Below are positions 34 through 11,190 of a stretch of 11,190 nt of DNA, piece by piece (positions within the stretch are counted from its first letter, which is position 1; each line of letters starts with the position of its first letter). The stretch is from the NCBI GenBank assembly GCA_015523565.1, contig WAKA01000076.1:1-11190 (forward strand). Direction: 5' to 3'. Source of the DNA: Candidatus Heimdallarchaeota archaeon (GTDB lineage Archaea > Asgardarchaeota > Heimdallarchaeia > Heimdallarchaeales > Kariarchaeaceae). The notes below the pieces were generated by a model that was not told where the DNA came from, did not search any database, and was given only the letters and a program-made list of their open reading frames with translations. The position numbers and the translations under genes were made by a program.

Positions 34-369
34 CTTTCAATCTAGATATCCTAGAATCCTCTATTGTAACCAACATTGTACATGAGAGACAATATCTCAA
101 AAACCATCTTTCAATCTAGATATCCTAGAATCCTCTATTGTAACCCCGTTCCTACCTACAGCTATTATTAGCCTCAAAACGACTTTCAATCTAGATATCC
201 TAGAATCCTCTATTGTAACTATTGACTTTGTTGCCGGGGATTTTCTATGAGTTTGTCTTTCAATCTAGATATCCTAGAATCCTCTATTGTAACAATAAAA
301 ACAATTCATCCCGTAACTCAGTATCCCTTGGTCTTTCAATCTAGATATCCTAGAATCCTCTATTGTAAC
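34..369 (-). CRISPR. CRISPR array: 5 identical 37-bp repeats, 4 complete spacers and a probable partial spacer at 1-33
   Basis: Repeat CTTTCAATCTAGATATCCTAGAATCCTCTATTGTAAC at 34-70, 108-144, 183-219, 257-293 and 333-369. Unique spacers at 71-107 (37 bp), 145-182 (38), 220-256 (37) and 294-332 (39). The minus-strand repeat GTTACAATAGAGGATTCTAGGATATCTAGATTGAAAG has the typical GTT...ATTGAAAG ends and a TCTAG-GATAT-CTAGA hairpin just before the 3' handle. Confidence 0.99.
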
Positions 370-463
370 TGCGGTCAAATCCTTGTCGAGAAGGGCTGAG
401 GACGTGATTTAGGAATCAAATTTTTGTTTATCACACGTGACGCACCTTCCTTAAATACCTGCC
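370..463 (-). promoter_or_regulatory. CRISPR leader (94 bp) between the cas1 stop and the first repeat
   Basis: Non-coding gap adjacent to the 5' (GTTAC) end of the first repeat in the inferred transcription direction. It has AT-rich tracts, and ACGTGA occurs twice (402-407, 435-440). Confidence 0.8.
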
Positions 464-1441
464 TCATTTCAGGATGAGGGGGAGGTATTCGGTTTTTGAC
501 AGGAGCCATGATGTAAGTTTTTGCACCTGTAGCTGGATGATGTTTCTCAAGGTCATTTCTCCCTTTTCATTCTTATGTTTTTTTCTCAGGAGTTGTTCAT
601 AAGCGGCGAGGTATTTGCGTTTGCCTTCGTCAGTCAGGTAGTAACCAATGCCTTCTTTTGTGAAATGCTTCCTTCCCAGTTGCTGTTTGTTGAGCATGTT
701 GACTGTGAATCGTTCAATGACAGGACGGAATTGTTCAAGTAAGTCAAGAACAAGTGATTTGCGACCGTGGCGGAATTGGTGAAGGAAGCCCCTGTATGGG
801 TTAAGACCGTAGTATCGGACATGGGGTTCGATTTCAGAGGTCATTAGGACATATCCCAATGAAAGTAGGCTGTTTGCTATGTCCTTTGGAGGTCTTTTGC
901 TTCGTCCATTGAAGAATGATGGGGTTGAAAGCACTTGTGGAAAGGCGTTCCAGTACGCCGCGGCGGCATGACCTTCCATGCCCCTGAGTGAGTCGATGGA
1001 ACGAGCGTTTGGGATTTTCTTCAATGCTTCCTGCAGTTGATCAGTGGGGATTGACTTTCTCTTCAGCATTGAAATCCTGCTTGTTATTTGTCCCGCAATG
1101 ATTTGCTTGATGAGGGGCAGGGCGTCTCGATCGGATGTTTGAAGGTGTTGTTCAAGGATTTTGTACGACATGATCTCCTGCCCGTAAAGCATTCCCTTGT
1201 ATTTTCCATGTGTACTGAAATAATGGACAGTGATGCCATTTCTCAGGCAATGGTCGATCAACTGGTAAGAGAGGTGAGCGGCACCGAAAATGCATATACG
1301 GGAAACGGAATGGAGAAGAGCCTGACCCAGTGTTTCTCCGTTTTGGGAGACTTCAAGTCTTTTGTTTTGGATTGTCAGGGATGTTCCCTGTGTTGTGATA
1401 TAAATGCTGGAGGTGTCTTGTAGGGTTATTGTGTCAGTCAT
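464..1441 (-). CDS. cas1: CRISPR-associated integrase Cas1
   Basis: 325 aa. N-terminal YITTQGTSL; catalytic motifs LRGMEGHAAAAYW, FNGRSKRPPKD.ANSLLSLGY, GLNPYRGFLH and SLVLDLLEQFRP. GGAGTGA RBS upstream. Adjacent to the leader. Confidence 0.98.
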   Translation of the reverse strand: MTDTITLQDTSSIYITTQGTSLTIQNKRLEVSQNGETLGQALLHSVSRICIFGAAHLSYQLIDHCLRNGITVHYFSTHGKYKGMLYGQEIMSYKILEQHLQTSDRDALPLIKQIIAGQITSRISMLKRKSIPTDQLQEALKKIPNARSIDSLRGMEGHAAAAYWNAFPQVLSTPSFFNGRSKRPPKDIANSLLSLGYVLMTSEIEPHVRYYGLNPYRGFLHQFRHGRKSLVLDLLEQFRPVIERFTVNMLNKQQLGRKHFTKEGIGYYLTDEGKRKYLAAYEQLLRKKHKNEKGEMTLRNIIQLQVQKLTSWLLSKTEYLPLILK

Positions 1442-1447
1442 TTCTGT

Positions 1448-2023
1448 TCACTCCATTTGAATTGTTGTCTGGATTGTTTCGACCCAGCAGAAGGTTCTGT
1501 TTGCGCAGTTTTTGCATTTGTTTGGGTTAGTTGTGCGCTTGAACTCAGTATCGTTTCTGATTCCCCTTATTGTCTGGATTGTCAACTGTTTGAGATAGTT
1601 GTCATAGCTTTTTTGGTATCGTTTTCTGGATTCATGGCAGTAGATTTCGAGGTGGGCTATATCATACCCCTCATATTCAAGGCAGAGAGCGTATGCACAG
1701 AGCCCTATCCAGTCAGGCAGGTAGTTTGGATTGCTGTTCTTCTTGAATTCGACGGGAATAAGTCTTCCGTCTTGGGTGATTTCGACGAGGTCAATGATTC
1801 CGAGGATTCCAAGTTCCTCGTTTGCCAGTTCGATGGATATGCCAAAGAGTTTTCGTTTTTTGTTCCTGTATTTCTTTCGGTCGATGCGCTTATGGATGAG
1901 TTCACCTTTTATGAGTTCGACCGTGGGGTCAGGGGGCACCTGCAGGATGACTTCAAGCATGAACTGTCGGGGGCAGAATGCATATTTTTGTATTTTTCGG
2001 ATTGGGATTTGGAATAGGTTCAT
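1448..2023 (-). CDS. cas4: CRISPR-associated exonuclease Cas4
   Basis: 191 aa. YAFCPRQ, GELIH and RecB-like GIIDLVE...PVEFKK motifs; C-terminal CKNCANRTFC completes the four-Cys Fe-S site. GAGGT RBS upstream of the ATG. Confidence 0.96.
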   Translation of the reverse strand: MNLFQIPIRKIQKYAFCPRQFMLEVILQVPPDPTVELIKGELIHKRIDRKKYRNKKRKLFGISIELANEELGILGIIDLVEITQDGRLIPVEFKKNSNPNYLPDWIGLCAYALCLEYEGYDIAHLEIYCHESRKRYQKSYDNYLKQLTIQTIRGIRNDTEFKRTTNPNKCKNCANRTFCWVETIQTTIQME

Positions 2024-2047: not shown

Positions 2048-2317
2048 GTGTTCATTATTGTCATGTATGACATCCGCGAAGATGACAGGAGGTCGAAATT
2101 ATACAGGCGGATGAAGCAGGAAGGGGCAAGGGTACAGTATTCGGCGTTTGAGCTTGAAATAACAGAGCAAAGGCTATTGATCTTGAAGGAGGACATTCGA
2201 GGGATCATTGATGAAAGAGTGGATTCGGTAAGGATGTACAGACTCTGCCGCAGTTGTATGGAGAACATTGAAGTCATTGGAACGGATGACAAGGAAAGTT
2301 TCACCTCGATTTTTTGA
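2048..2317 (+). CDS. cas2: CRISPR-associated protein Cas2, inverted relative to the operon
   Basis: 89 aa, GTG start. IIVMYDIREDDRR, RVQYSAFE and DSVRMYRLCRSC are diagnostic Cas2 motifs. The 3' end overlaps the cas3' 3' end convergently (2301-2317). Confidence 0.96.
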   Translation: MFIIVMYDIREDDRRSKLYRRMKQEGARVQYSAFELEITEQRLLILKEDIRGIIDERVDSVRMYRLCRSCMENIEVIGTDDKESFTSIF

Positions 2318-4409
2318 ATCTGCAATTTATTTCATTGTAAAGGTTCAGGGCTGCGCCGAAAGAGGTTTCCACCCCTATGATGTTTTGATCCCATCCAATG
2401 AGTTGGATGAACATTGCGTCGGCGAATTCAGAAAGAAAGTATTCCAGATCCTCTTTTGTTTTTCCTTGCCTGAGTCGGAAAGTGAGACCGAAAGAAAGGA
2501 ATCCTACGGGTTCTGTTTCATCATCATCATTTGCGTAGACAATTGGGACGGGAGAGGTGTTATTTGTTGAGGCGGTGAAAACAACCTTTCCGAACCTGAG
2601 GGAGATTGATGCAATAGGGTCAGGCAGGTTTTTGAGGGTATGTATATGCCATTCTTTCCTGAATTGCTTCCAATGTTCAGCGGAGAGGGATTCCTTGTCG
2701 AATTTGGCAGAGATGTATTGCATTGGTTTCATGTAGATTGCATTGCCATATTGAATTGGGAGTGTGCCTAGATCAAACAGGGGCCACTTTGGCTTGAAAA
2801 ACCCAGGGATTACGGCATGCTCAGTAATGATCATGAGTTCTGAGACAGTTCGCAGAGCGTAAAGCGGGTTGTCGGAAAATCGTTTGCCACCGTCTTTTGA
2901 TCTGTAATAGATTTGTGGGAGGGTGGTTCTCAGAGTCATGGAGTTTAGCAGGAGCTTTTGCACGAAGGTTTTGTATTTTTCGAAGAGACTTTTTGCTTCC
3001 TCAACAGTGGGCAATGAAGAATGGGAATCATAATTGGATCCGTCAAACATTCTACAGTTCAACTCCAGTTTAATGAGAGTAATCCCTTCCCATAGCTTGT
3101 TAAGATAGTAATGCATGGCGAATATCAGGTCAGATGTGGTAGCTGTGAACATGCTTCCAGGAATTTTTTTGTCGATATCCATGAGATATTGGTAAAACGG
3201 ATTGATACCCTTATAATGGGATTGTGGAGGGGATTCAATCAAGTTTGAGTACCAATCTTTGCCTTTGTAAGGTGCAGGGAGGACATGAACAATTGCCTCT
3301 TCGTCACCGTATCTTCCGACTCTCCCGATTCTTTGGATTAAGTTTGGGGAGGGACAGCTTTCGGTGATAAGGACTTGGAATTGATCGCTGACGCCTACTT
3401 CGGCACTGCTTGTTGCAATTACCAGAACCTTTTGCTTTTGTGCATTTTTGATGTTTTTATACTCATTCCATCCGTTGAATACCCTGAAGAGGTTGTATGG
3501 TGCCTTTTTACTATGGAAATCGTTAGCCATCCTGTAAGCCCGTCTTCTTGAATTAAGGATCACAATGATCCTGTCTTTCTCATTCAATTGGTTTCTTATG
3601 ATATTTGCCAAGTAGCTGTCATGATCATCCATGTCGCAGGGGGGATGTATGAACAGCCTTAGGGATGAGTGTTTGCCAATACCAGTTATTTCTTTATTGA
3701 CAATGCCCCTTGTTTTAAGAAGATCGAGGGCATAATCAGGAGTTGTTGCAGAGAAGAAGCTATGTGGGATTTTCGGTGGGGTTCCTTCCAATGTTTCAAG
3801 GATAAGGCGTTCTCGTTCAAGATTGAGGACTACATTTTGCAATGCAAGAGGATGGAGGATATGGATTTCGTCAAAAGCTTTTGGGGCGAAGAGTTGCCTG
3901 TAGAAGAATTCCGCCTTATATGTTTTGTTTGACTTGTTGGGAAAATGGAGGTATGCCCATTTGTCAATTGTGCCCACTACTCCTAAGGAAGGGGTAAATC
4001 CAATGTACTCTTCTTCTTCAGATTTGATTGGATAAAATTCACCCAAGGTTTTCAGGAGATTTTTCACCTTTCCTGTTGCAGTTCCCGTTTGAGCTTTCAG
4101 GCCCATTTTTTTGAAACGGCTGTTTAAAAGTTCATGATGTTGGTTGAGAAGGGCATAGGTTGGATAGAGTGAATAAAAGAAGCCATGCCTTGTATCGTCC
4201 TGATGTTTTAGCCAATTGATCATTCCCAATTGAAAGATGTCCCTTTTTCCACCACCAGTTCCAACGGTACAGACAATTCCCTCCCCATTCATTATAGCCT
4301 CAATTCCTTTTTTTTGGTGGACGTATGGATCATATGGGGAATCTGTGAATACATTGCCTTCGAATTTTGTGGATCTTGGTTGTTCAGGTCCAATATGAAT
4401 TTCGATCAA
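2301..4409 (-). CDS. cas3: Cas3' SF2 helicase without an HD domain
   Basis: 702 aa, TTG start with GGAGG RBS, overlapping the upstream stop (TTGA). Motifs: Q PYVHQ, I GTGGGKR, Ia LYPTYALLNQH, II FDEIH, III SATT, IV ILNS, V ATSSAEVGVS, VI QRIGRVGR. The helicase begins about 30 aa from the start, leaving no room for an HD domain. Confidence 0.92.
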   Translation of the reverse strand: MIEIHIGPEQPRSTKFEGNVFTDSPYDPYVHQKKGIEAIMNGEGIVCTVGTGGGKRDIFQLGMINWLKHQDDTRHGFFYSLYPTYALLNQHHELLNSRFKKMGLKAQTGTATGKVKNLLKTLGEFYPIKSEEEEYIGFTPSLGVVGTIDKWAYLHFPNKSNKTYKAEFFYRQLFAPKAFDEIHILHPLALQNVVLNLERERLILETLEGTPPKIPHSFFSATTPDYALDLLKTRGIVNKEITGIGKHSSLRLFIHPPCDMDDHDSYLANIIRNQLNEKDRIIVILNSRRRAYRMANDFHSKKAPYNLFRVFNGWNEYKNIKNAQKQKVLVIATSSAEVGVSDQFQVLITESCPSPNLIQRIGRVGRYGDEEAIVHVLPAPYKGKDWYSNLIESPPQSHYKGINPFYQYLMDIDKKIPGSMFTATTSDLIFAMHYYLNKLWEGITLIKLELNCRMFDGSNYDSHSSLPTVEEAKSLFEKYKTFVQKLLLNSMTLRTTLPQIYYRSKDGGKRFSDNPLYALRTVSELMIITEHAVIPGFFKPKWPLFDLGTLPIQYGNAIYMKPMQYISAKFDKESLSAEHWKQFRKEWHIHTLKNLPDPIASISLRFGKVVFTASTNNTSPVPIVYANDDDETEPVGFLSFGLTFRLRQGKTKEDLEYFLSEFADAMFIQLIGWDQNIIGVETSFGAALNLYNEINCRFKKSR

Positions 4410-5092
4410 AATATGTTTTCCTCCAATTTTGGATTGATTTCCACATTGACATTGATTTGGTTGAGTTGTAATTTCAAATCTGAATGAAAGTATTCAGACA
4501 GCCGACCATAAAGCCATTTTTGGTTTTCATCAATTTTTCCTGAAAGGAAGTCCCCAAGATTGAATACTAGACTCTCTTCTGTTTGGATGCCTTCTATTTT
4601 TGCGCTTAGATGATCCGCCAATACAATCAATATCCGTTCAATTCTCAAGCTGAGACCATCAAGCTGTTTTTTGGGATGGTGGTTTCTCATCACCCATTTT
4701 GCAAGTGTATCATTTCTCTTTAGGGTGATTCCGAAATTTTCCAATAATTCAGCTTCAGATTGATGGAGGGAAGGGTCAAAAAGCCTGTCATCCGCATGAT
4801 CCCGATAATTTGTCCAATTTTTGTGGTTATTTTGCTTAAACCATGTTTGCCATTCTTCAGTATTTTTGCCATCATCATGGTGGAGAACTGCATAGGTAAG
4901 CTCATCGGTTGGGAAATGATTGTCTCTGCTTTTTAGGTCAACTGTTGAATAAAATTCATGGAAAAGGATTGCAGTAAGCATGCAATGACTGGAAAGATAT
5001 GTGTAAGGTCTGGCAAATGGTTCGTGATCCAATAAAGTTAGAATATATTGATTTTTTCCAACTTTGAGTGTGATGTTTCGAGAAACCATCAA
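4406..5092 (-). CDS. cas3'': Stand-alone Cas3''-type HD nuclease (start TTG 5092 or ATG 5089)
   Basis: 228 aa. Cas3-type metal ligands in order: ARP...LSSH, LHHDDGK, DHAD, MRNHH, LADHLSA. Coupled to cas6 (TGATG overlap) and to cas3'. Confidence 0.88.
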   Translation of the reverse strand: MMVSRNITLKVGKNQYILTLLDHEPFARPYTYLSSHCMLTAILFHEFYSTVDLKSRDNHFPTDELTYAVLHHDDGKNTEEWQTWFKQNNHKNWTNYRDHADDRLFDPSLHQSEAELLENFGITLKRNDTLAKWVMRNHHPKKQLDGLSLRIERILIVLADHLSAKIEGIQTEESLVFNLGDFLSGKIDENQKWLYGRLSEYFHSDLKLQLNQINVNVEINPKLEENIF

Positions 5093-5889
5093 GAAAGCCT
5101 CGCGTGGATTTTCCCAAGCCCTATGGTTCTGCCATGACCGACATTTGTCCAGTTTGCGATTTTGACTAGTTTGGAGATTGTTCCATTAATTTTTCCTTGA
5201 AAAACGAGTCTTCCCTTATGTCCAGTGTAGATTATTTGTTTGTCATCATTATGGACAGGGAATCGGATTGCCGTGAGTGATGATTGCTGATCCAATAAGC
5301 GAATTGGCTCACATGCCTTTTTGAAATCGTCAGGACTTATTTTCTGATCGGACACCATATTGTAAATTCTGAAAGGAGTTCTCATTATTTTTTCAAGGGA
5401 AAGCTCGTGCATTCTTAACTCTTTACCATATCCTTCTTTGAGAAAGAAGAGGGGAGTCTTGAATGTCATTTCCAATTTTGAGAATTTTGCTTGACTTGAA
5501 TTTAAGGTTTCTTCAGGCAAATATTTGGTGTTGGTAGAAACAATCTTGAAACGGTACTGTCCAATTTGGATTGTTTTTCGGTTCAATTCAGAGAATCTTT
5601 TTAGGGCTTTTCTCATGTCCTTTCCAAAAACGACAATGTCAAAGTATCCATGGACATGAGGAGGAACAACAAATGTTTTTCGTTCTTTTTTCATTCCAGG
5701 AGGAAATTGAATAGGGTTAATTGAAAATGGCTTAGGTGCATTGGAGTCATGCAATGAATTCCAGAGAGGTTTCATTGTCTTATATACAAAAGCCCTAAGG
5801 AATTCGCCATGCTGGAATGGCACATAAGACATTTTTATTGGTCGGATAGACACTCTAGTACTTGCAATCATAGGTCGCATTTCAATCAC
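5089..5889 (-). CDS. cas6: crRNA-processing endoribonuclease Cas6 (true start may be ATG 5880)
   Basis: LHDSNAPKPFSINP, MTFKTPLFF and the C-terminal Gly-rich loop NVGHGRTIGLG. GGTGA lies 5 nt upstream of ATG 5880. Confidence 0.95.
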   Translation of the reverse strand: MIEMRPMIASTRVSIRPIKMSYVPFQHGEFLRAFVYKTMKPLWNSLHDSNAPKPFSINPIQFPPGMKKERKTFVVPPHVHGYFDIVVFGKDMRKALKRFSELNRKTIQIGQYRFKIVSTNTKYLPEETLNSSQAKFSKLEMTFKTPLFFLKEGYGKELRMHELSLEKIMRTPFRIYNMVSDQKISPDDFKKACEPIRLLDQQSSLTAIRFPVHNDDKQIIYTGHKGRLVFQGKINGTISKLVKIANWTNVGHGRTIGLGKIHARLS

Positions 5890-7142
5890 CTGAATCTATC
5901 TATTGGAACCATTTCCCCACCATCCATATTCAGATAGAAGAAATTGTCCAAAGGGATGCAATAACCATCGACAACAATGGCATCTCCAGAATATTTTCCC
6001 TTGAGAATCGCATATCTCTCTGTTCTTTCAATCAATTGTGTGATCTCCATATCAGGAAGCATTTCCATTGGATATTGCAGGACAGTTGTTTCCATTTCTC
6101 GGACTTGCTGGATGTCGGCAGGGTGAAATTCCCCTAAATGGACTACAGTCTCATTGGTAGAGGCAAAGGTTCCAAAATGTAAGACACGCTCAAATCTTTT
6201 TTGGATTTGAGGGATGTCATCCTTGTTGCATACAATATACCCATGAAATTCTGTTTTGGGACGAATATATTCAATTGTTCCAAAATTTGGGAAGGGGTCA
6301 TTTGATCCTTTTCCATATATTGCAAGGTCACCGTATTCCGTCCTTGTGGTTGAGTAGTGATCCCATCCATACATGTAAAGATTAAGGTCTGAAAGGATAG
6401 CATCAGACACATTTCCAGAAATCCATGGTTTAAGTTCATTGGGTCGATTCGAGGGATTTTCCGACTTCCATTGTGCAATCATCTGTTCAATTTCAAATAA
6501 TCCAGGAAGTGAGCCAGAATGATTTGGAACGAGATGTTTCATCACCGCATTCATGTCAATAGTTTTTAGGGAAGTTTTTTGTGAATAGAAAACAATTTGA
6601 GGACATGAATCATAGAGTGTATGGTGAACAGCATCCCTTATCTTTTTCATCAACCATGATGGGTTTCGTTGAGCTTTTTTCCAATCTAGGTTCCATTTGT
6701 CTGTTTTCTGGTCTTCTTTCACATTAGCCACATCAGATACTTTGAGATGCCCTGTAGAAACAGCGAGGCTTATCAATGCCTTTACAGGAGTGCCAAATAC
6801 ACTGGTTGTTGTATATGTGGCAGATTTACCTGCAAAAACGGACTGCAGAAGAATACCGCCCATTGGCGCGATTAAATTGTAAACTCTGGTTTCAAGATGT
6901 TCCGAGAAGGAAAGGGGGTGAGAGGGAATTGCAGGAGTAAGATAAAATCCCTCAGAAGGCCAAAGGTAGCTTGAACTCTTTTTTATAGTATGACGAAGAT
7001 TGCTTGGACGGGATCCGAAGAGGATGGTGGATGATGATACATGGGTTTTGTAAACCTCATAATCACCACCCCTTTTTACGTTCCTGTTGAGATGAAGATT
7101 AGTCATGGGGAACAGGGAATATTTCGCCACATGAAATTTCAT
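5886..7142 (-). CDS. cas5: Cas5-group RAMP, Csc1 (type I-D)-like, with a large insertion
   Basis: 418 aa, positioned between cas7 and cas6. GFYLTPAIP, FPNFGTIEYIRPKTEF and VLHFG resemble Csc1 conserved blocks. GGTGA RBS and ATGA overlap with cas7. Confidence 0.75.
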   Translation of the reverse strand: MKFHVAKYSLFPMTNLHLNRNVKRGGDYEVYKTHVSSSTILFGSRPSNLRHTIKKSSSYLWPSEGFYLTPAIPSHPLSFSEHLETRVYNLIAPMGGILLQSVFAGKSATYTTTSVFGTPVKALISLAVSTGHLKVSDVANVKEDQKTDKWNLDWKKAQRNPSWLMKKIRDAVHHTLYDSCPQIVFYSQKTSLKTIDMNAVMKHLVPNHSGSLPGLFEIEQMIAQWKSENPSNRPNELKPWISGNVSDAILSDLNLYMYGWDHYSTTRTEYGDLAIYGKGSNDPFPNFGTIEYIRPKTEFHGYIVCNKDDIPQIQKRFERVLHFGTFASTNETVVHLGEFHPADIQQVREMETTVLQYPMEMLPDMEITQLIERTERYAILKGKYSGDAIVVDGYCIPLDNFFYLNMDGGEMVPIDRFR

Positions 7143-8128
7143 TCGGTTTCTTCACCTTTTGGGGTTTTTTTGTCAAGGAATTCTATCCAATCTGCCCCCA
7201 TTAGCAGTTCATCATATTTCTGATATACATAAGCAAGCAGATCCTCATTTTCATCAAAGCTGAACTGCACAACGGTTGCATTTGGGGGAAAGAGTCTATC
7301 AGGAGTATTAAGGAGATCAAAATCCTCTGCCAAGTCTATATTTGTAGCTATGTTGAGAGGGGATTCATTTGAGACAGCAGTTAATTGCATTTTAAACCGT
7401 CCATTTCTACTTGAATAAGCTCCGACACCGTCGACTTGACCAACTTCATTCAATGCCTTGATGGAAGCAAAGAAGTCATATTTCGAGGGATCCCGAATCA
7501 TGAGTTTGAATGGAAATCGAGTTCCTGGTTTAACGAATTCATAGGTTGCAAAACTTGATGAGCTGCGTGAAGACATGCCACCTCTAGAAGGAGAATCTAC
7601 TGTGTTTAAGACACCAGCTTGATCAAAATCCAGATAACCTGCCACGCAATCATTTGCATGTTCAACTGAAAACATGTCTGGCAAGAACCATCTGGATCTT
7701 CTAGCAAACCTTCCAGGACTGAGACTACCTAGTGAGACACAGACTACACAGTTTCCACATAGGTTTTCACTTTTTCTGCATGACTTGACAAAGGATAATT
7801 GTCTTTTTGTTCGTTCGTCTAGACCATTTTCCTTATTTTTGAAAGTATCTTGATCATAAATATCTCTCAGATCCATTAGCAATCCGTCACGTATTTTTGT
7901 CAGGATCTTTATTCCTCTGAGTTCTGCACGGACGGTGCCATTTATATCTTGTTTATCAACAACTTGGTGGTTGCTTTTGTCACCCACTGTTGACTTGAAG
8001 ATTCCTCTTTGGGTCATTTCAATGTAACCCACGATAGTCAAAATTCTTCCAGACCAAAGCCCTGCCTTTTCAGGGAGGTCAGGCAATTCATCAATAATTC
8101 CAGAAAGTTTATTTTCGATATCATTCAT
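7139..8128 (-). CDS. cas7: Cas7 backbone subunit, Csc2 (type I-D)-like
   Basis: 329 aa from ATG 8128, which has a GGTGA RBS 10 nt upstream and an ATGAATGA overlap with the upstream gene (the track start at 8173 is probably too long). Zn-binding CRKSENLCGNCVVC, SRWFLPDMFS, EFVKPGTRFP and GVGAYSSRNG match the Csc2 pattern. Confidence 0.85.
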   Translation of the reverse strand: MNDIENKLSGIIDELPDLPEKAGLWSGRILTIVGYIEMTQRGIFKSTVGDKSNHQVVDKQDINGTVRAELRGIKILTKIRDGLLMDLRDIYDQDTFKNKENGLDERTKRQLSFVKSCRKSENLCGNCVVCVSLGSLSPGRFARRSRWFLPDMFSVEHANDCVAGYLDFDQAGVLNTVDSPSRGGMSSRSSSSFATYEFVKPGTRFPFKLMIRDPSKYDFFASIKALNEVGQVDGVGAYSSRNGRFKMQLTAVSNESPLNIATNIDLAEDFDLLNTPDRLFPPNATVVQFSFDENEDLLAYVYQKYDELLMGADWIEFLDKKTPKGEETE

Positions 8129-8510
8129 TTTGTTTTTCACCTGCCAGATTGGAAAGATTGCGATAAATGACAAACATTGAAATGTTGATCGCGTTTCTTT
8201 CGTCTATATTTGGAAGGGTATTTTTGCAGTATTCTTGAAATTCGTCAACTTTAGACATATCGAGTTTGGACAAGTCCATTCCCTGTCTTGACAATTTAGT
8301 CATGAATTCTGCGATACCTTGTTCGATGGTTGATTGCTTGCGGATAATTCTGAAGAAATCACGCAAGGGTGCTTCATAGCTGCTTTCCTGTCGTTTAGCC
8401 TTGATTTCTTTCCATTTGGCCAATGGCTTGTTATCATTTTCAACAGGAAGGCCATACAAAAATTCAGTAAATTTTGTTACAAATTCCATTTCCTTTGAAT
8501 CTTTTGTCAT
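8121..8510 (-). CDS. cas11: Putative Cas11 small subunit from an internal in-frame start in the large-subunit gene
   Basis: The minus strand reads GGTGA-AACCAATT-ATG at 8523-8508, the same RBS used by cas7, cas5 and cas6. It gives a 129-aa helical-looking product (MTKDSKEMEF...). Internal Cas11 translation is established for types I-B, I-C and I-D. Confidence 0.65.
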   Translation of the reverse strand: MTKDSKEMEFVTKFTEFLYGLPVENDNKPLAKWKEIKAKRQESSYEAPLRDFFRIIRKQSTIEQGIAEFMTKLSRQGMDLSKLDMSKVDEFQEYCKNTLPNIDERNAINISMFVIYRNLSNLAGEKQNE

Positions 8511-9956
8511 AATTGGTTTCACCATTTCATAATAGGTTTCAACTAGGGTTTTGAAATCATACCTTGCCTTTGACTTTTTATTTGTGTTTGATTTCAAATT
8601 TTTCTTTTTCTTCGAATCTGAGTTGATTTCAGCGTATGTAAATCTCATTGACTTTCCAAATTCGGAAACAGGATTTTTTAGAAATCTTTCAATCTGCCTC
8701 CATCTAATTAAAGGTTTAGCAAATTTTGCTTCAGATCTGAAGAAAGGATGAACACTCCCAATTTTTTCTTCAGCGAAAGCCATAAGTCGATAAACAGAGG
8801 AAGCCTTAGATGTATCGATCAAGTTAAGACCAATGTCTGTGACTTGGAACAACCTGATTTTTTTGCCTAGTGGTTCGCCATCCAAGGTTAGGCTTTCAAG
8901 AGCTTTAACGATTAGTGAATAAAGGAGATTTGCCTCTTTTTTCAATCTAAGGTTTGGATCAACATAATTGTTCATTTTTATGTTTTTGCGTTGTCTTTTT
9001 GTCTTGTAGTTTAATACAAGTCCAGAAGCATTAATTATAAGAAATATCTTTCCATTGGCTGAGATGATTTTGAATGATCCCTCATCAATTTCATCAATTA
9101 GATCCTCCAAATCAAATTCATCTTCAGTAAACTCCAATTGGACGATTTCATTTCCATCAAATTTTGTCCTTAATTTTGTATCGGATTTTCCAGAGACAGT
9201 TTTTGAATAATTGGGAGGATGTTTGAAACGATATGCAAGATTGATGGCAAGTCTCTCGATTGGTTCATTGTCCACCCCTGTAACTTCAAAGATAACCAGA
9301 AAATGTTTTTCAGGGGGTTCAAAATCATGTATTACAACGGTTTCTATTATTTCTTTCCAAGTGCATATTGGGCAAAGAAGATTTAGATACGAATTTCCCA
9401 TCCGAGACCTTATTTTTTCAGGATCAGTTTCAGTCAACGCGAATCTTAACCTGCCTGGTGTATATTTGTATTGGGTTGGCCATACATTTTTGAAAATATG
9501 AGGGGTACGGGGTCTAGAATCCCCAAAAAAATCAAAGAATCCTCCACATTCATCACATCTATTTCCTTTGGCTTCAGGAGTTATTTGCATTTGGTTTACA
9601 ATTGTTCCCAAAAAAGAAACAAATTCCGGAAAATAGCGGTTCGAGTTTTGTAATTCATGGGATATTTCCATTAATGTGTTTGAGGAAAAAATTTGATGGA
9701 ATTTTGGTTTTTTGGATGAATATATTGCATGAATTTTAGAACGGGAAAGTGAATAGCGAGTCCAATCATTATTGAATGGGTTATTGCCCTTTATTAGAAG
9801 ATCAGGAGTAAGGTTTTTCTTTAGTTTTTCCAATTCATCCTTATTGACATCAATAAATGGTTCCTTTATGGTTTCTCGTCCCAAGGCATCTGCAACCAAT
9901 TGGCGAAATATTGCATCATGTACATAAGGCATTGAGGGAAAGTACAAACGAAACAT
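8121..9956 (-). CDS. Effector large subunit (HD-less Cas10d-like or Cas8-like, CxxC-CxxC)
   Basis: 611 aa from ATG 9956 (the track extends to TTG 10025). First gene of the operon and coupled to cas7. CDEC (9557-9546) and CPIC (9374-9363) form a likely Zn site, and the C-terminal region looks helical. No HD or GGDD motif seen. Confidence 0.75.
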   Translation of the reverse strand: MFRLYFPSMPYVHDAIFRQLVADALGRETIKEPFIDVNKDELEKLKKNLTPDLLIKGNNPFNNDWTRYSLSRSKIHAIYSSKKPKFHQIFSSNTLMEISHELQNSNRYFPEFVSFLGTIVNQMQITPEAKGNRCDECGGFFDFFGDSRPRTPHIFKNVWPTQYKYTPGRLRFALTETDPEKIRSRMGNSYLNLLCPICTWKEIIETVVIHDFEPPEKHFLVIFEVTGVDNEPIERLAINLAYRFKHPPNYSKTVSGKSDTKLRTKFDGNEIVQLEFTEDEFDLEDLIDEIDEGSFKIISANGKIFLIINASGLVLNYKTKRQRKNIKMNNYVDPNLRLKKEANLLYSLIVKALESLTLDGEPLGKKIRLFQVTDIGLNLIDTSKASSVYRLMAFAEEKIGSVHPFFRSEAKFAKPLIRWRQIERFLKNPVSEFGKSMRFTYAEINSDSKKKKNLKSNTNKKSKARYDFKTLVETYYEMVKPIMTKDSKEMEFVTKFTEFLYGLPVENDNKPLAKWKEIKAKRQESSYEAPLRDFFRIIRKQSTIEQGIAEFMTKLSRQGMDLSKLDMSKVDEFQEYCKNTLPNIDERNAINISMFVIYRNLSNLAGEKQNE

Positions 9957-10103
9957 TCTACAAATATGGATTCTTAGTGTTGATATTTTAGCACATATAA
10001 CAAATTGGAAAACAGTTAAATTCAAATTTTATAATTGAAATGTATTGAAATTATCGACAAATTTGAGAACTTTTTTTTAAATTTTTATTCCATTATTATA
10101 ATA
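9957..10103. promoter_or_regulatory. AT-rich divergent promoter region
   Basis: TTTAAA at 10076-10081 ends 23 nt before ATG 10104, the spacing of an archaeal TATA box for a leaderless mRNA. Minus-strand TATA candidates at 10000-9995 (TTATAT) and 10034-10029 (TTATAA). Confidence 0.6.
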
Positions 10104-11190
10104 ATGATTTCCCAATTTCAAGTCAATAATGAGGGAATAATAGATGCCATAAAGAAATTCATCAACCAAGACTATGAAAGTTATATAGACATTACCAATG
10201 CATATGAAATTTTCATCCAAGATTTGAAATGTAATGTAAGCTTACCAGAAGGATTGGAAGGGAAACCAATATGTTCAAAGAGTTCACAATCTGATAAACC
10301 GTTTTCGTTGTTGCCAAGATTTGGGGCCTGTAGAGTGACAATACATGTCCGATATTATAAGGACAATATTGCAACAATATTAATCGCAACTAAAGCTTTG
10401 TTTTTGGTTTTGATGCAAAACACACCAAATTTTGTGAGAGAAAAGTTTGATACGATGCAAGAGGTTGCATTGTCGATAGTTTTCCTTCTTGCAGAGAATG
10501 AAGGGACAAAGAAAAAAATATGGGACATGTGGACAGAATTACGAACCCAAAAAAGTTACACAAATCATGTTTTAAAGATACGAAAATTTCTAAGGTTCAT
10601 GTATAGAACTCGAAAGGAAAATGTAATAAGGAACATCTTGAATCTATCAGGGATTTCACCCCAAAATTTTAAGGATTATCCATACAGTGCAATTCTTTTT
10701 CCGAGACTGAAGGAAGCACACTATAAAGTCATGCATATAGAAACGAATGTGGAGGCTAAACAAGGTGAGAAAGCAAATCTTCTTGGAATAAGCCAGTCAC
10801 GTTATTCCCAGCTTTACAATGAGCTTATGTATCAGCAAGTCATTGTTCCATTTGTGGAAATTCGTCTTGAAAGGATTGGATTCAAGCGTTATTTTATTTA
10901 TATTATTCTTGAAAAGGATAGGGAAAAAGAAATTTTGCAGAGTTTCAGTTATATAGATGAATTGATAGCCATACAGATTTCACCAGAAAAAAAGATCTAC
11001 ATAATAATTTTTTATAAGCCAGCAAATACAAAATATCCAAAATTTCCAGACCATAGTGAAGTTATTGATTGGGGAGAAATCATTCCAGGGAATTCATTTC
11101 AATATGATGCGGTTGGTTTACACAATATCAAGGACAAACGATTTAAGGAAAAATTTACGTTGAAAAACCATTTTGAACCTATGAACGAGC
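10104..11190 (+). CDS. Partial ORF (at least 362 aa, 3'-truncated): Lrp/AsnC-like winged-HTH protein, putative transcription regulator
   Basis: Hand translation is open from ATG 10104 (MISQFQVNNEGII...) to the window end. Residues about 220-270, QGEKANLLGISQSRYSQLYNELMYQQVIVPFVEIRLERIGFKRYFIYIIL, fit the Lrp/AsnC HTH-wing-linker pattern. It is absent from the track because it has no stop in the window. Confidence 0.75.
   Translation, partial: MISQFQVNNEGIIDAIKKFINQDYESYIDITNAYEIFIQDLKCNVSLPEGLEGKPICSKSSQSDKPFSLLPRFGACRVTIHVRYYKDNIATILIATKALFLVLMQNTPNFVREKFDTMQEVALSIVFLLAENEGTKKKIWDMWTELRTQKSYTNHVLKIRKFLRFMYRTRKENVIRNILNLSGISPQNFKDYPYSAILFPRLKEAHYKVMHIETNVEAKQGEKANLLGISQSRYSQLYNELMYQQVIVPFVEIRLERIGFKRYFIYIILEKDREKEILQSFSYIDELIAIQISPEKKIYIIIFYKPANTKYPKFPDHSEVIDWGEIIPGNSFQYDAVGLHNIKDKRFKEKFTLKNHFEPMNE

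Follow-up and report, generated by a model that had tools for sequence, protein, structure and literature searches.

The Cas10d large subunit of S. islandicus comprises an HD domain (residues 1-186), a Cyclase/RRM domain with a 180-residue helical insert (187-425), a zinc finger (426-490), a GGDD-less Palm/RRM domain (491-623), a Thumb (624-719), and a Cas11-like domain (720-847) (PMC7689449). In Synechocystis Cas10d, the region between the HD domain and the finger holds the domain that recognizes the protospacer-adjacent motif (PAM) (PMC9123187). Two papers (PMC3150331, PMC10212523) lay out scenarios in which the HD nuclease was transferred between Cas3 and an inactivated Cas10, that of type I-D, and in which the loss of this domain from Cas10d gave rise to the small, inactive Cas8 subunits. 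Here, we analyzed a window of 11,190 bp, the entire contig WAKA01000076.1 of an archaeal metagenome-assembled genome (Candidatus Heimdallarchaeota; 3.57 Mb in 233 contigs), whose CRISPR operon begins with a gene for a 611-aa protein. We consider it probable that this protein is the large subunit (LS) of a rare, I-D-derived type I effector complex, best read as a Cas10d shortened at its N terminus by the HD domain and about 200 residues more. The residues lost beyond the HD domain are best read as part of the Cyclase/RRM-plus-helical region, and what is left as keeping the Cas10d order of a short prefinger segment, a four-Cys finger, a degenerate GGDD-less palm-like region, a thumb, and a Cas11-like bundle. 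LS is a real, conserved large subunit that looks functional and by function and size is Cas8-like.

LS is read from ATG 9956 to a stop codon at 8121 on the minus strand. The first-pass annotation of this DNA had given 8511-9956, which covers residues 1-482 but stops at the internal Met483 and omits the last 129 residues. The start at ATG 9956 agrees with the N terminus of the homolog P0002 (62% identical); a longer version from TTG 10025 was rejected because P0002 begins at the equivalent Met. The other features recorded in that annotation are all present in the translated frame: CDEC (residues 134-137) and CPIC (195-198) lie exactly 57 residues apart, the acidic run EDEFDLEDLIDEIDE occupies residues 278-292, and the basic runs KTKRQRK and KKKKNLK occupy residues 318-324 and 449-455. 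Its description of only about 130 residues before the finger, with neither HD nor GGDD, also stood: the 611 residues contain no GGDD, GGDE, or GGD, HD-domain profiles do not match LS, and HD dipeptides occur only at residues 13 and 210, with H13 unconserved. Of the five cysteines (134, 137, 195, 198, 577), the four that belong to the CxxC motifs do not vary in any relative, across four lineages and at identities down to 36%, so the motif pair is not a chance occurrence. Across these lineages, invariant columns amount to 41% in the finger segment, the most conserved part, 31% in the C-terminal bundle, and 12% in residues 1-130, the least conserved part. The finger holds a conserved, family-specific insert, YTPGRLxFAL. 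The palm-like region is predicted to run from a beta-alpha unit through a variable acidic insert (residues 246-292, positions 9081-9221) to a beta-hairpin with ANGK at the position where GGDD would sit, and it includes a conserved basic patch, TKxQR.

Standard profiles do not recognize this protein, as had been predicted from its sequence. Neither LS nor its family profile matched anything in Pfam, NCBIfam, PADLOC, or the sequences of the Protein Data Bank (PDB). TIGR03174 and the PADLOC Cas10d models did not match LS at E values up to 1-10, PF09706 did not match any family member at E values up to 10, and neither PF09706 nor TIGR03174 hit the LS gene in a six-frame search of the genome. With filters switched off, custom hidden Markov models (HMMs) for Cst1 (120 sequences), cyanobacterial Cas10d (120), and archaeal Cas10d (16) likewise gave no match to LS.

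For profile–profile comparison, we built alignments of 120 Cst1/Cas8b1 proteins, 120 cyanobacterial Cas10d proteins, 16 Cas10d proteins of 800-900 aa from the same phylum, and a divergent pair of 768 and 731 aa whose genes adjoin those of the nearest Cas7 relatives in other genera. Against a merged, more diverse Cas10d profile, the LS family scored 39.6 in hhalign (P 8.8e-4, Prob 23%). The alignment pairs LS residues 31-236 with about 110 prefinger Cas10d residues, both knuckles, and the first postfinger (palm) strand; LS residues 31-130 fall on the roughly 110 residues directly before the Cas10d finger. The highest of 70 column shuffles of the LS alignment scored 24.9 (17.4 +/- 2.6 for all), so that none reached the real score, which lies 8 standard deviations (SD) above them; reversing the alignment gave 16.3. 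With separate profiles, P was 0.02 for archaeal Cas10d and 0.017 for the 768-aa pair (zinc finger aligned), and cyanobacterial Cas10d alone yielded only a nonsignificant C-terminal alignment (P 0.5). Archaeal against cyanobacterial Cas10d served as positive control (E 5.6e-20), and the 768-aa pair matched archaeal Cas10d with Prob 96.8% and E 2.5e-10. The second knuckle of LS, G-x7-C-x-L-C, has the archaeal Cas10d spacing. The profile similarity of LS to Cas10d around the zinc finger is weak but above control.

Structure prediction bears on the C-terminal half. An AlphaFold2 (AF2) model from the five-sequence alignment had a predicted local distance difference test (pLDDT) score of 56.6 over the whole chain, rising to 85-94 for residues 468-607 and falling to about 30-60 in the N-terminal half. 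Foldseek, the comparison proposed in the first-pass annotation, gave no match against the PDB at E <= 1e-3, but four of its top five matches were Cas10d chains, none below E 1e-3. VIA-align, which is independent of Foldseek, was run against 48,161 PDB representatives and ranked Synechocystis Cas10d first (7sbb_I; 8.7, 4.4, 200; LS 372-609 on residues 727-975), type I-D Cas11d second (7sba_J; 7.9, 3.5, 111; LS 485-609 on 4-146), and type IV-B Cas11 third (7jhy_h; 6.2, 4.9, 123; LS 469-611 on 14-146). The thumb-like domain was aligned to Cas10d in both 7sbb_I (727-975) and 6thh_C (638-844). In this model, the C-terminal fold of LS is Cas11d/Cas10d-like. A caveat is that a first, poorer AF2 model from a two-sequence alignment (pLDDT 45.8) does not give the Cas10d/Cas11d match, its fold search returning only generic helical and ferredoxin-like matches.

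Because the C-terminal fold matches Cas10d and Cas11d and residues 31-236 align with the Cas10d profile, we favor an N-terminally reduced Cas10d. Compared with the S. islandicus protein, the HD domain is absent from LS and encoded by a separate gene, Cyclase/RRM corresponds to residues 1-130, and the finger, the palm (with a variable acidic insert), the thumb, and the Cas11-like domain correspond to the segments bounded in Table 1. From the finger onward, order and sizes agree (in S. islandicus, the finger has 65 aa, the thumb about 100 aa, and the Cas11-like domain about 128 aa); missing from LS are the HD domain and most of the HD-to-finger region, so that about 130 residues precede the finger in LS, whereas roughly 425-520 do in Cas10d. 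Further likenesses to Cas10d (S. islandicus, 6YES/6THH; Synechocystis, 7SBA/7SBB) are the Csc2-type Cas7 partner and a probable internal Cas11 start. The four-Cys finger, with its invariant cysteines and knuckle pairing in hhalign, and the C-terminal helical Thumb and Cas11-like domain are thus found in LS; the RRM flanks of the finger are putative. In contrast, LS has no N-terminal fused Cas3''-type HD domain, the HD gene being three genes downstream, its Cys spacing is 57 rather than 38-45, it carries the YTPGRLxFAL insert, and no curated Cas10d profile matches it. The first-pass annotation had posed an eroded Cas10d or a Cas8-like protein as the choice. Fold and profile favor its Cas10d branch, although the HD domain is not lost but resides in a separate, conserved gene (4406-5092).

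Table 1. Coordinates of the domains of LS and of the operon features in the window
Feature	Position	Strand	Remarks
LS gene, P0001	8121..9956	-	611 aa; first gene of the effector operon
N-terminal region, LS residues 1-130	9567..9956	-	No HD domain; AF2 pLDDT 45-70
Zn-finger domain, LS residues 131-200	9357..9566	-	C134/C137 at 9546-9557, C195/C198 at 9363-9374
Putative degenerate Palm/RRM-like domain, LS residues 201-371	8844..9356	-	
Helical Thumb-like domain, LS residues 372-484	8505..8843	-	Lys-rich variable linker (449-463) near its end
Cas11-like helical bundle, LS residues 485-611	8124..8504	-	pLDDT 85-94
Candidate start of a 129-aa Cas11	8508..8523	-	GGTGA (8523-8519), 8 nt, in-frame ATG (8510-8508, Met483)
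Cas7, Csc2 (I-D) family	7139..8173	-	Likely start ATG 8128
418-aa protein at Cas5 position	5886..7142	-	No family match; 418 aa kept in L001
Cas6	5089..5889	-	
Stand-alone HD nuclease (Cas3'')	4406..5092	-	228 aa; PADLOC matches
Cas3' helicase	2301..4409	-	702 aa, HD-less; DEAD, Helicase_C, and Cas3-C domains
cas2	2048..2317	+	TIGR01573 E 3.6e-17; opposite strand to operon
cas4	1448..2023	-	
cas1	464..1441	-	
CRISPR array	34..370	-	Five identical 37-nt repeats, running off the contig end

Among other explanations, the strongest is that LS is a Cas8b1/Cst1-type (CXXC_CXXC) subunit that recombination brought together with Cas7/Cas5 genes of the I-D type and a split cas3 and that would play an ordinary Cas8 role, as PAM reader with a fused Cas11; we judge this unlikely. 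Proteins of this family (PF09706/TIGR01908; some I-B systems) are, like LS, large subunits that lack an HD domain; they are similar in size (put at 450-600 or 450-580 aa, against 611 aa), with a helical C terminus and, some 100-130 residues into the chain, a CxxC...CxxC finger. The first-pass annotation had contrasted Cas10d with CXXC-CXXC Cas8 proteins that carry the finger near their N terminus, which is a loose description: five Cst1 proteins have the motifs at about residues 100 and 140, so about 100 residues precede the CxxC pair there too and finger position alone does not discriminate. The N-terminal P-[FY]-V-x-D-A of LS resembles GNPFVDAG of Cst1, and both P0001 and P0003 retrieve Cas8b1/Cst1 clusters and clusters bearing PF09706 in ESM-Atlas feature searches (0.93-0.95). 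Cas8b1/Cst1 is thereby among the nearest named neighbors of LS in language-model feature space, which keeps this reading alive, but with an Atlas recognition score under the tool's reliability threshold. In hhalign, LS and the 120 Cst1 sequences are collinear, but the score of 21.4 (P 0.11-0.12) is not above background and falls among the scores that the shuffles gave against Cas10d. Neither PF09706 nor the NCBIfam models match even at E 10, the Cys spacing is 57 as against 35-38, the second knuckle of Cst1 reads G-x3-C, and LS is paired with a Csc2 Cas7 rather than Cst2, its RAMP partners being of another family. In both profile and fold, LS matches Cas10d and Cas11d best, although fold search cannot compare both candidate families because, by sequence, the PDB has no Cst1-type Cas8 chain. 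The choice between Cas10d and Cas8 is also partly semantic, the Cas10d and Cst1 fingers themselves being weakly similar, as published (PMC3150331); our hhalign P of 0.0024 between Cst1 and archaeal Cas10d fits that report.

An improbable explanation is that LS shares only the C-terminal Cas11-like module with Cas10d and that its N-terminal 370 residues have an independent origin, with a convergent four-Cys finger. The N-terminal half has neither a confident model nor a significant sequence-to-profile match, and the least conserved part of LS lies there. However, the hhalign alignment that starts at residue 31 extends through the finger far above its shuffles, and domain order and sizes from the finger to the C terminus mirror those of S. 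islandicus Cas10d (PMC7689449). That LS is a decaying or nonfunctional remnant, as its shortness relative to Cas10d, its extreme rarity, and its absence from one same-genus genome (G054) might suggest, is very improbable given a frame intact in four lineages at 36-66% identity, strongly conserved motif blocks, an intact operon of overlapping genes, an array with five identical repeats and unique spacers, and the synteny kept in a second species.

Returning to the reduced Cas10d, the partner genes are consistent with this assignment. LS heads a complete type I operon of LS, Csc2-type Cas7, the 418-aa protein, Cas6, HD, and Cas3', followed by an inverted cas2, cas4, cas1, and the array, whose minus-strand repeat terminates in ATTGAAAG. 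The pairing with an I-D-type Cas7 noted in the first-pass annotation was borne out, the protein exceeding the curated Csc2 cut-offs of both PF18320 (41.4 bits; cut-off 25.5) and TIGR03157 (43.4 bits; cut-off 38). Both a Csc2-family Cas7 and a helicase-only Cas3', as in subtype I-D, are present. Also in favor of a Cas10d origin, the closest relatives of this Cas7 in other genera adjoin an HD-bearing 768-aa protein that hhalign assigns to Cas10d. The stand-alone HD protein matched the PADLOC models of Cas3 (8.6e-5), Cas3g (3.9e-4), and the Cas10d N terminus (7e-4). A contig from another species of the genus (L001) has the identical order LS-Cas7-418aa-Cas6-HD-Cas3' and a related repeat, and its HD protein, 64% identical to that of the window, is likewise encoded separately; the split between HD and helicase is thus a stable feature and not an assembly artifact. 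The 418-aa protein, long relative to the roughly 250 aa of Csc1, had no match to Cas5 or any other family in Pfam, NCBIfam, or PADLOC; against the Csc1 HMM, it gave two collinear, nonsignificant stretches (residues 65-75 and 284-312). The layout, known here from the genes, resembles type I-A in having the HD nuclease and the helicase as two adjacent genes, but the window system has a Csc2-type Cas7, no separate csa5/cas11, and no Cas8a. Spacers of the window and L001 arrays had no match in a phage collection, and four spacer cores had no exact match in IMG/VR. The inverted cas2 has cas3', whose end it overlaps, on one side and cas4 on the other. Beyond the operon, and divergent from it, an open reading frame (ORF) of at least 385 aa (10035-11189, plus strand) runs off the contig end and has no Pfam, NCBIfam, or PADLOC match.

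Internal translation of Cas11 is known for type I-D. In LS, GGTGA-N8-ATG at Met483 is kept in the window, in L001, and in the G053 copy (three lineages), although the encoded residues differ, and P0003 has Met residues at the equivalent place. Met483 lies two residues ahead of the start of the Cas11d alignment (Cas11d residue 4 on LS residue 485), and GGTGA is likewise found upstream of the 418-aa gene. This arrangement suggests a separately translated Cas11 starting at Met483.

Together, these features point to a working scheme in which we infer the N-terminal and palm folds, the internal translation, the architecture of the complex, and the reading of the PAM. By analogy with the I-D Cascade, LS would adjoin the protein at the Cas5 position at the 5'-handle end of a Csc2-type Cas7 filament, and its C-terminal bundle would begin the minor filament, to which the start at Met483 would supply extra Cas11 copies. 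After PAM recognition and R-loop formation, the separate HD protein would cut the nontarget strand together with the Cas3' helicase.

The arrangement also bears on the published evolutionary scenarios. It is possible, if doubtful, that the locus represents a separate lineage at subtype level in which the postulated intermediate between I-D and Cas8-type systems is preserved or recreated, with a Cas8-sized, HD-less LS and a free Cas3'' directly upstream of, and unfused to, Cas3'. In such an intermediate, the HD protein may be an integral Cascade subunit, as in I-A, and the PAM may be read by a new element such as the YTPGRLxFAL insert. Neither the sections consulted of the 2025 classification update (PMC12669027) nor those of the I-D review (PMC10212523) describe an I-D-like system with an HD-less large subunit. 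With an I-D-type Cas7, a Cas8-sized HD-less LS, and a free HD protein beside the helicase, the system is a natural example for testing the scenario of a transition from Cas10d to Cas8, and an LS that is still Cas10d-like at the zinc finger and C terminus bears on how Cas8-type subunits may have arisen. A compact LS with a separate nuclease could also interest builders of type I editing tools.

The family is extremely rare. Relatives were sought by a word-indexed search, by an exhaustive profile search (1.84 billion sequences that represent about 15 billion proteins), and among contigs of GTDB genomes and JGI metagenomes, IMG/VR, and 400 genomes of the phylum; these searches yielded only P0002, P0003/P0004, and the copy in G053, making a family of five sequences in four lineages among those 15 billion proteins. 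In the exhaustive search, the only clusters besides that of LS were P0002 (62-66% identity) and P0003 (36%), P0004 being a single near-identical sibling of P0003, and no further relatives came from the JGI contigs or IMG/VR. Among the 400 genomes, LS was found only in the genus of the window, in G055 and G053 (49% identity, cut by the contig end). Weak matches in G143, G311, G315, and G318 were dismissed as chance (E ~0.004 per genome over 400 genomes). A further genome of the genus, G054, which is 93% complete, has no match to either LS or the Cas7, so members of the genus differ in whether they carry the system. Since the family escapes current Cas profiles, loci of this kind probably end up classed as incomplete or unknown.

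Other CRISPR loci in the phylum drew our attention during this survey. A second I-D variant that profiles do not recognize occurs in L084 (G124:C193, 3529-10018) and L085 (G143:C387), with the order cas3', a 768-aa protein, a Csc2-type Cas7, a 206-aa ORF, and Cas6, with flanking CARF-HEPN and HerA/Cas4-like genes. Besides CxxC-x40-CxxC, the 768-aa protein carries an HD domain at its N terminus; it matches no PADLOC or NCBIfam Cas10d model but is a Cas10d by hhalign. These compact Cas10d proteins (768 and 731 aa) stand beside the closest relative of the window Cas7 outside the genus and, unlike LS, retain the HD domain at the N terminus and the canonical I-D order cas3'-cas10d-csc2. In the genome of the window itself, a 574-aa ORF at a contig start (G000:C65:123-239, L011) matches PF09706 weakly (E 0.05) and is a possible large subunit for a further CRISPR system. 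Between cas10d and csc2, 10 of the 15 I-D loci of the phylum (L064, L066, L067, L070-L075, L078) have an ORF of about 205 aa that matches no family and may encode a separate small subunit or an accessory protein.
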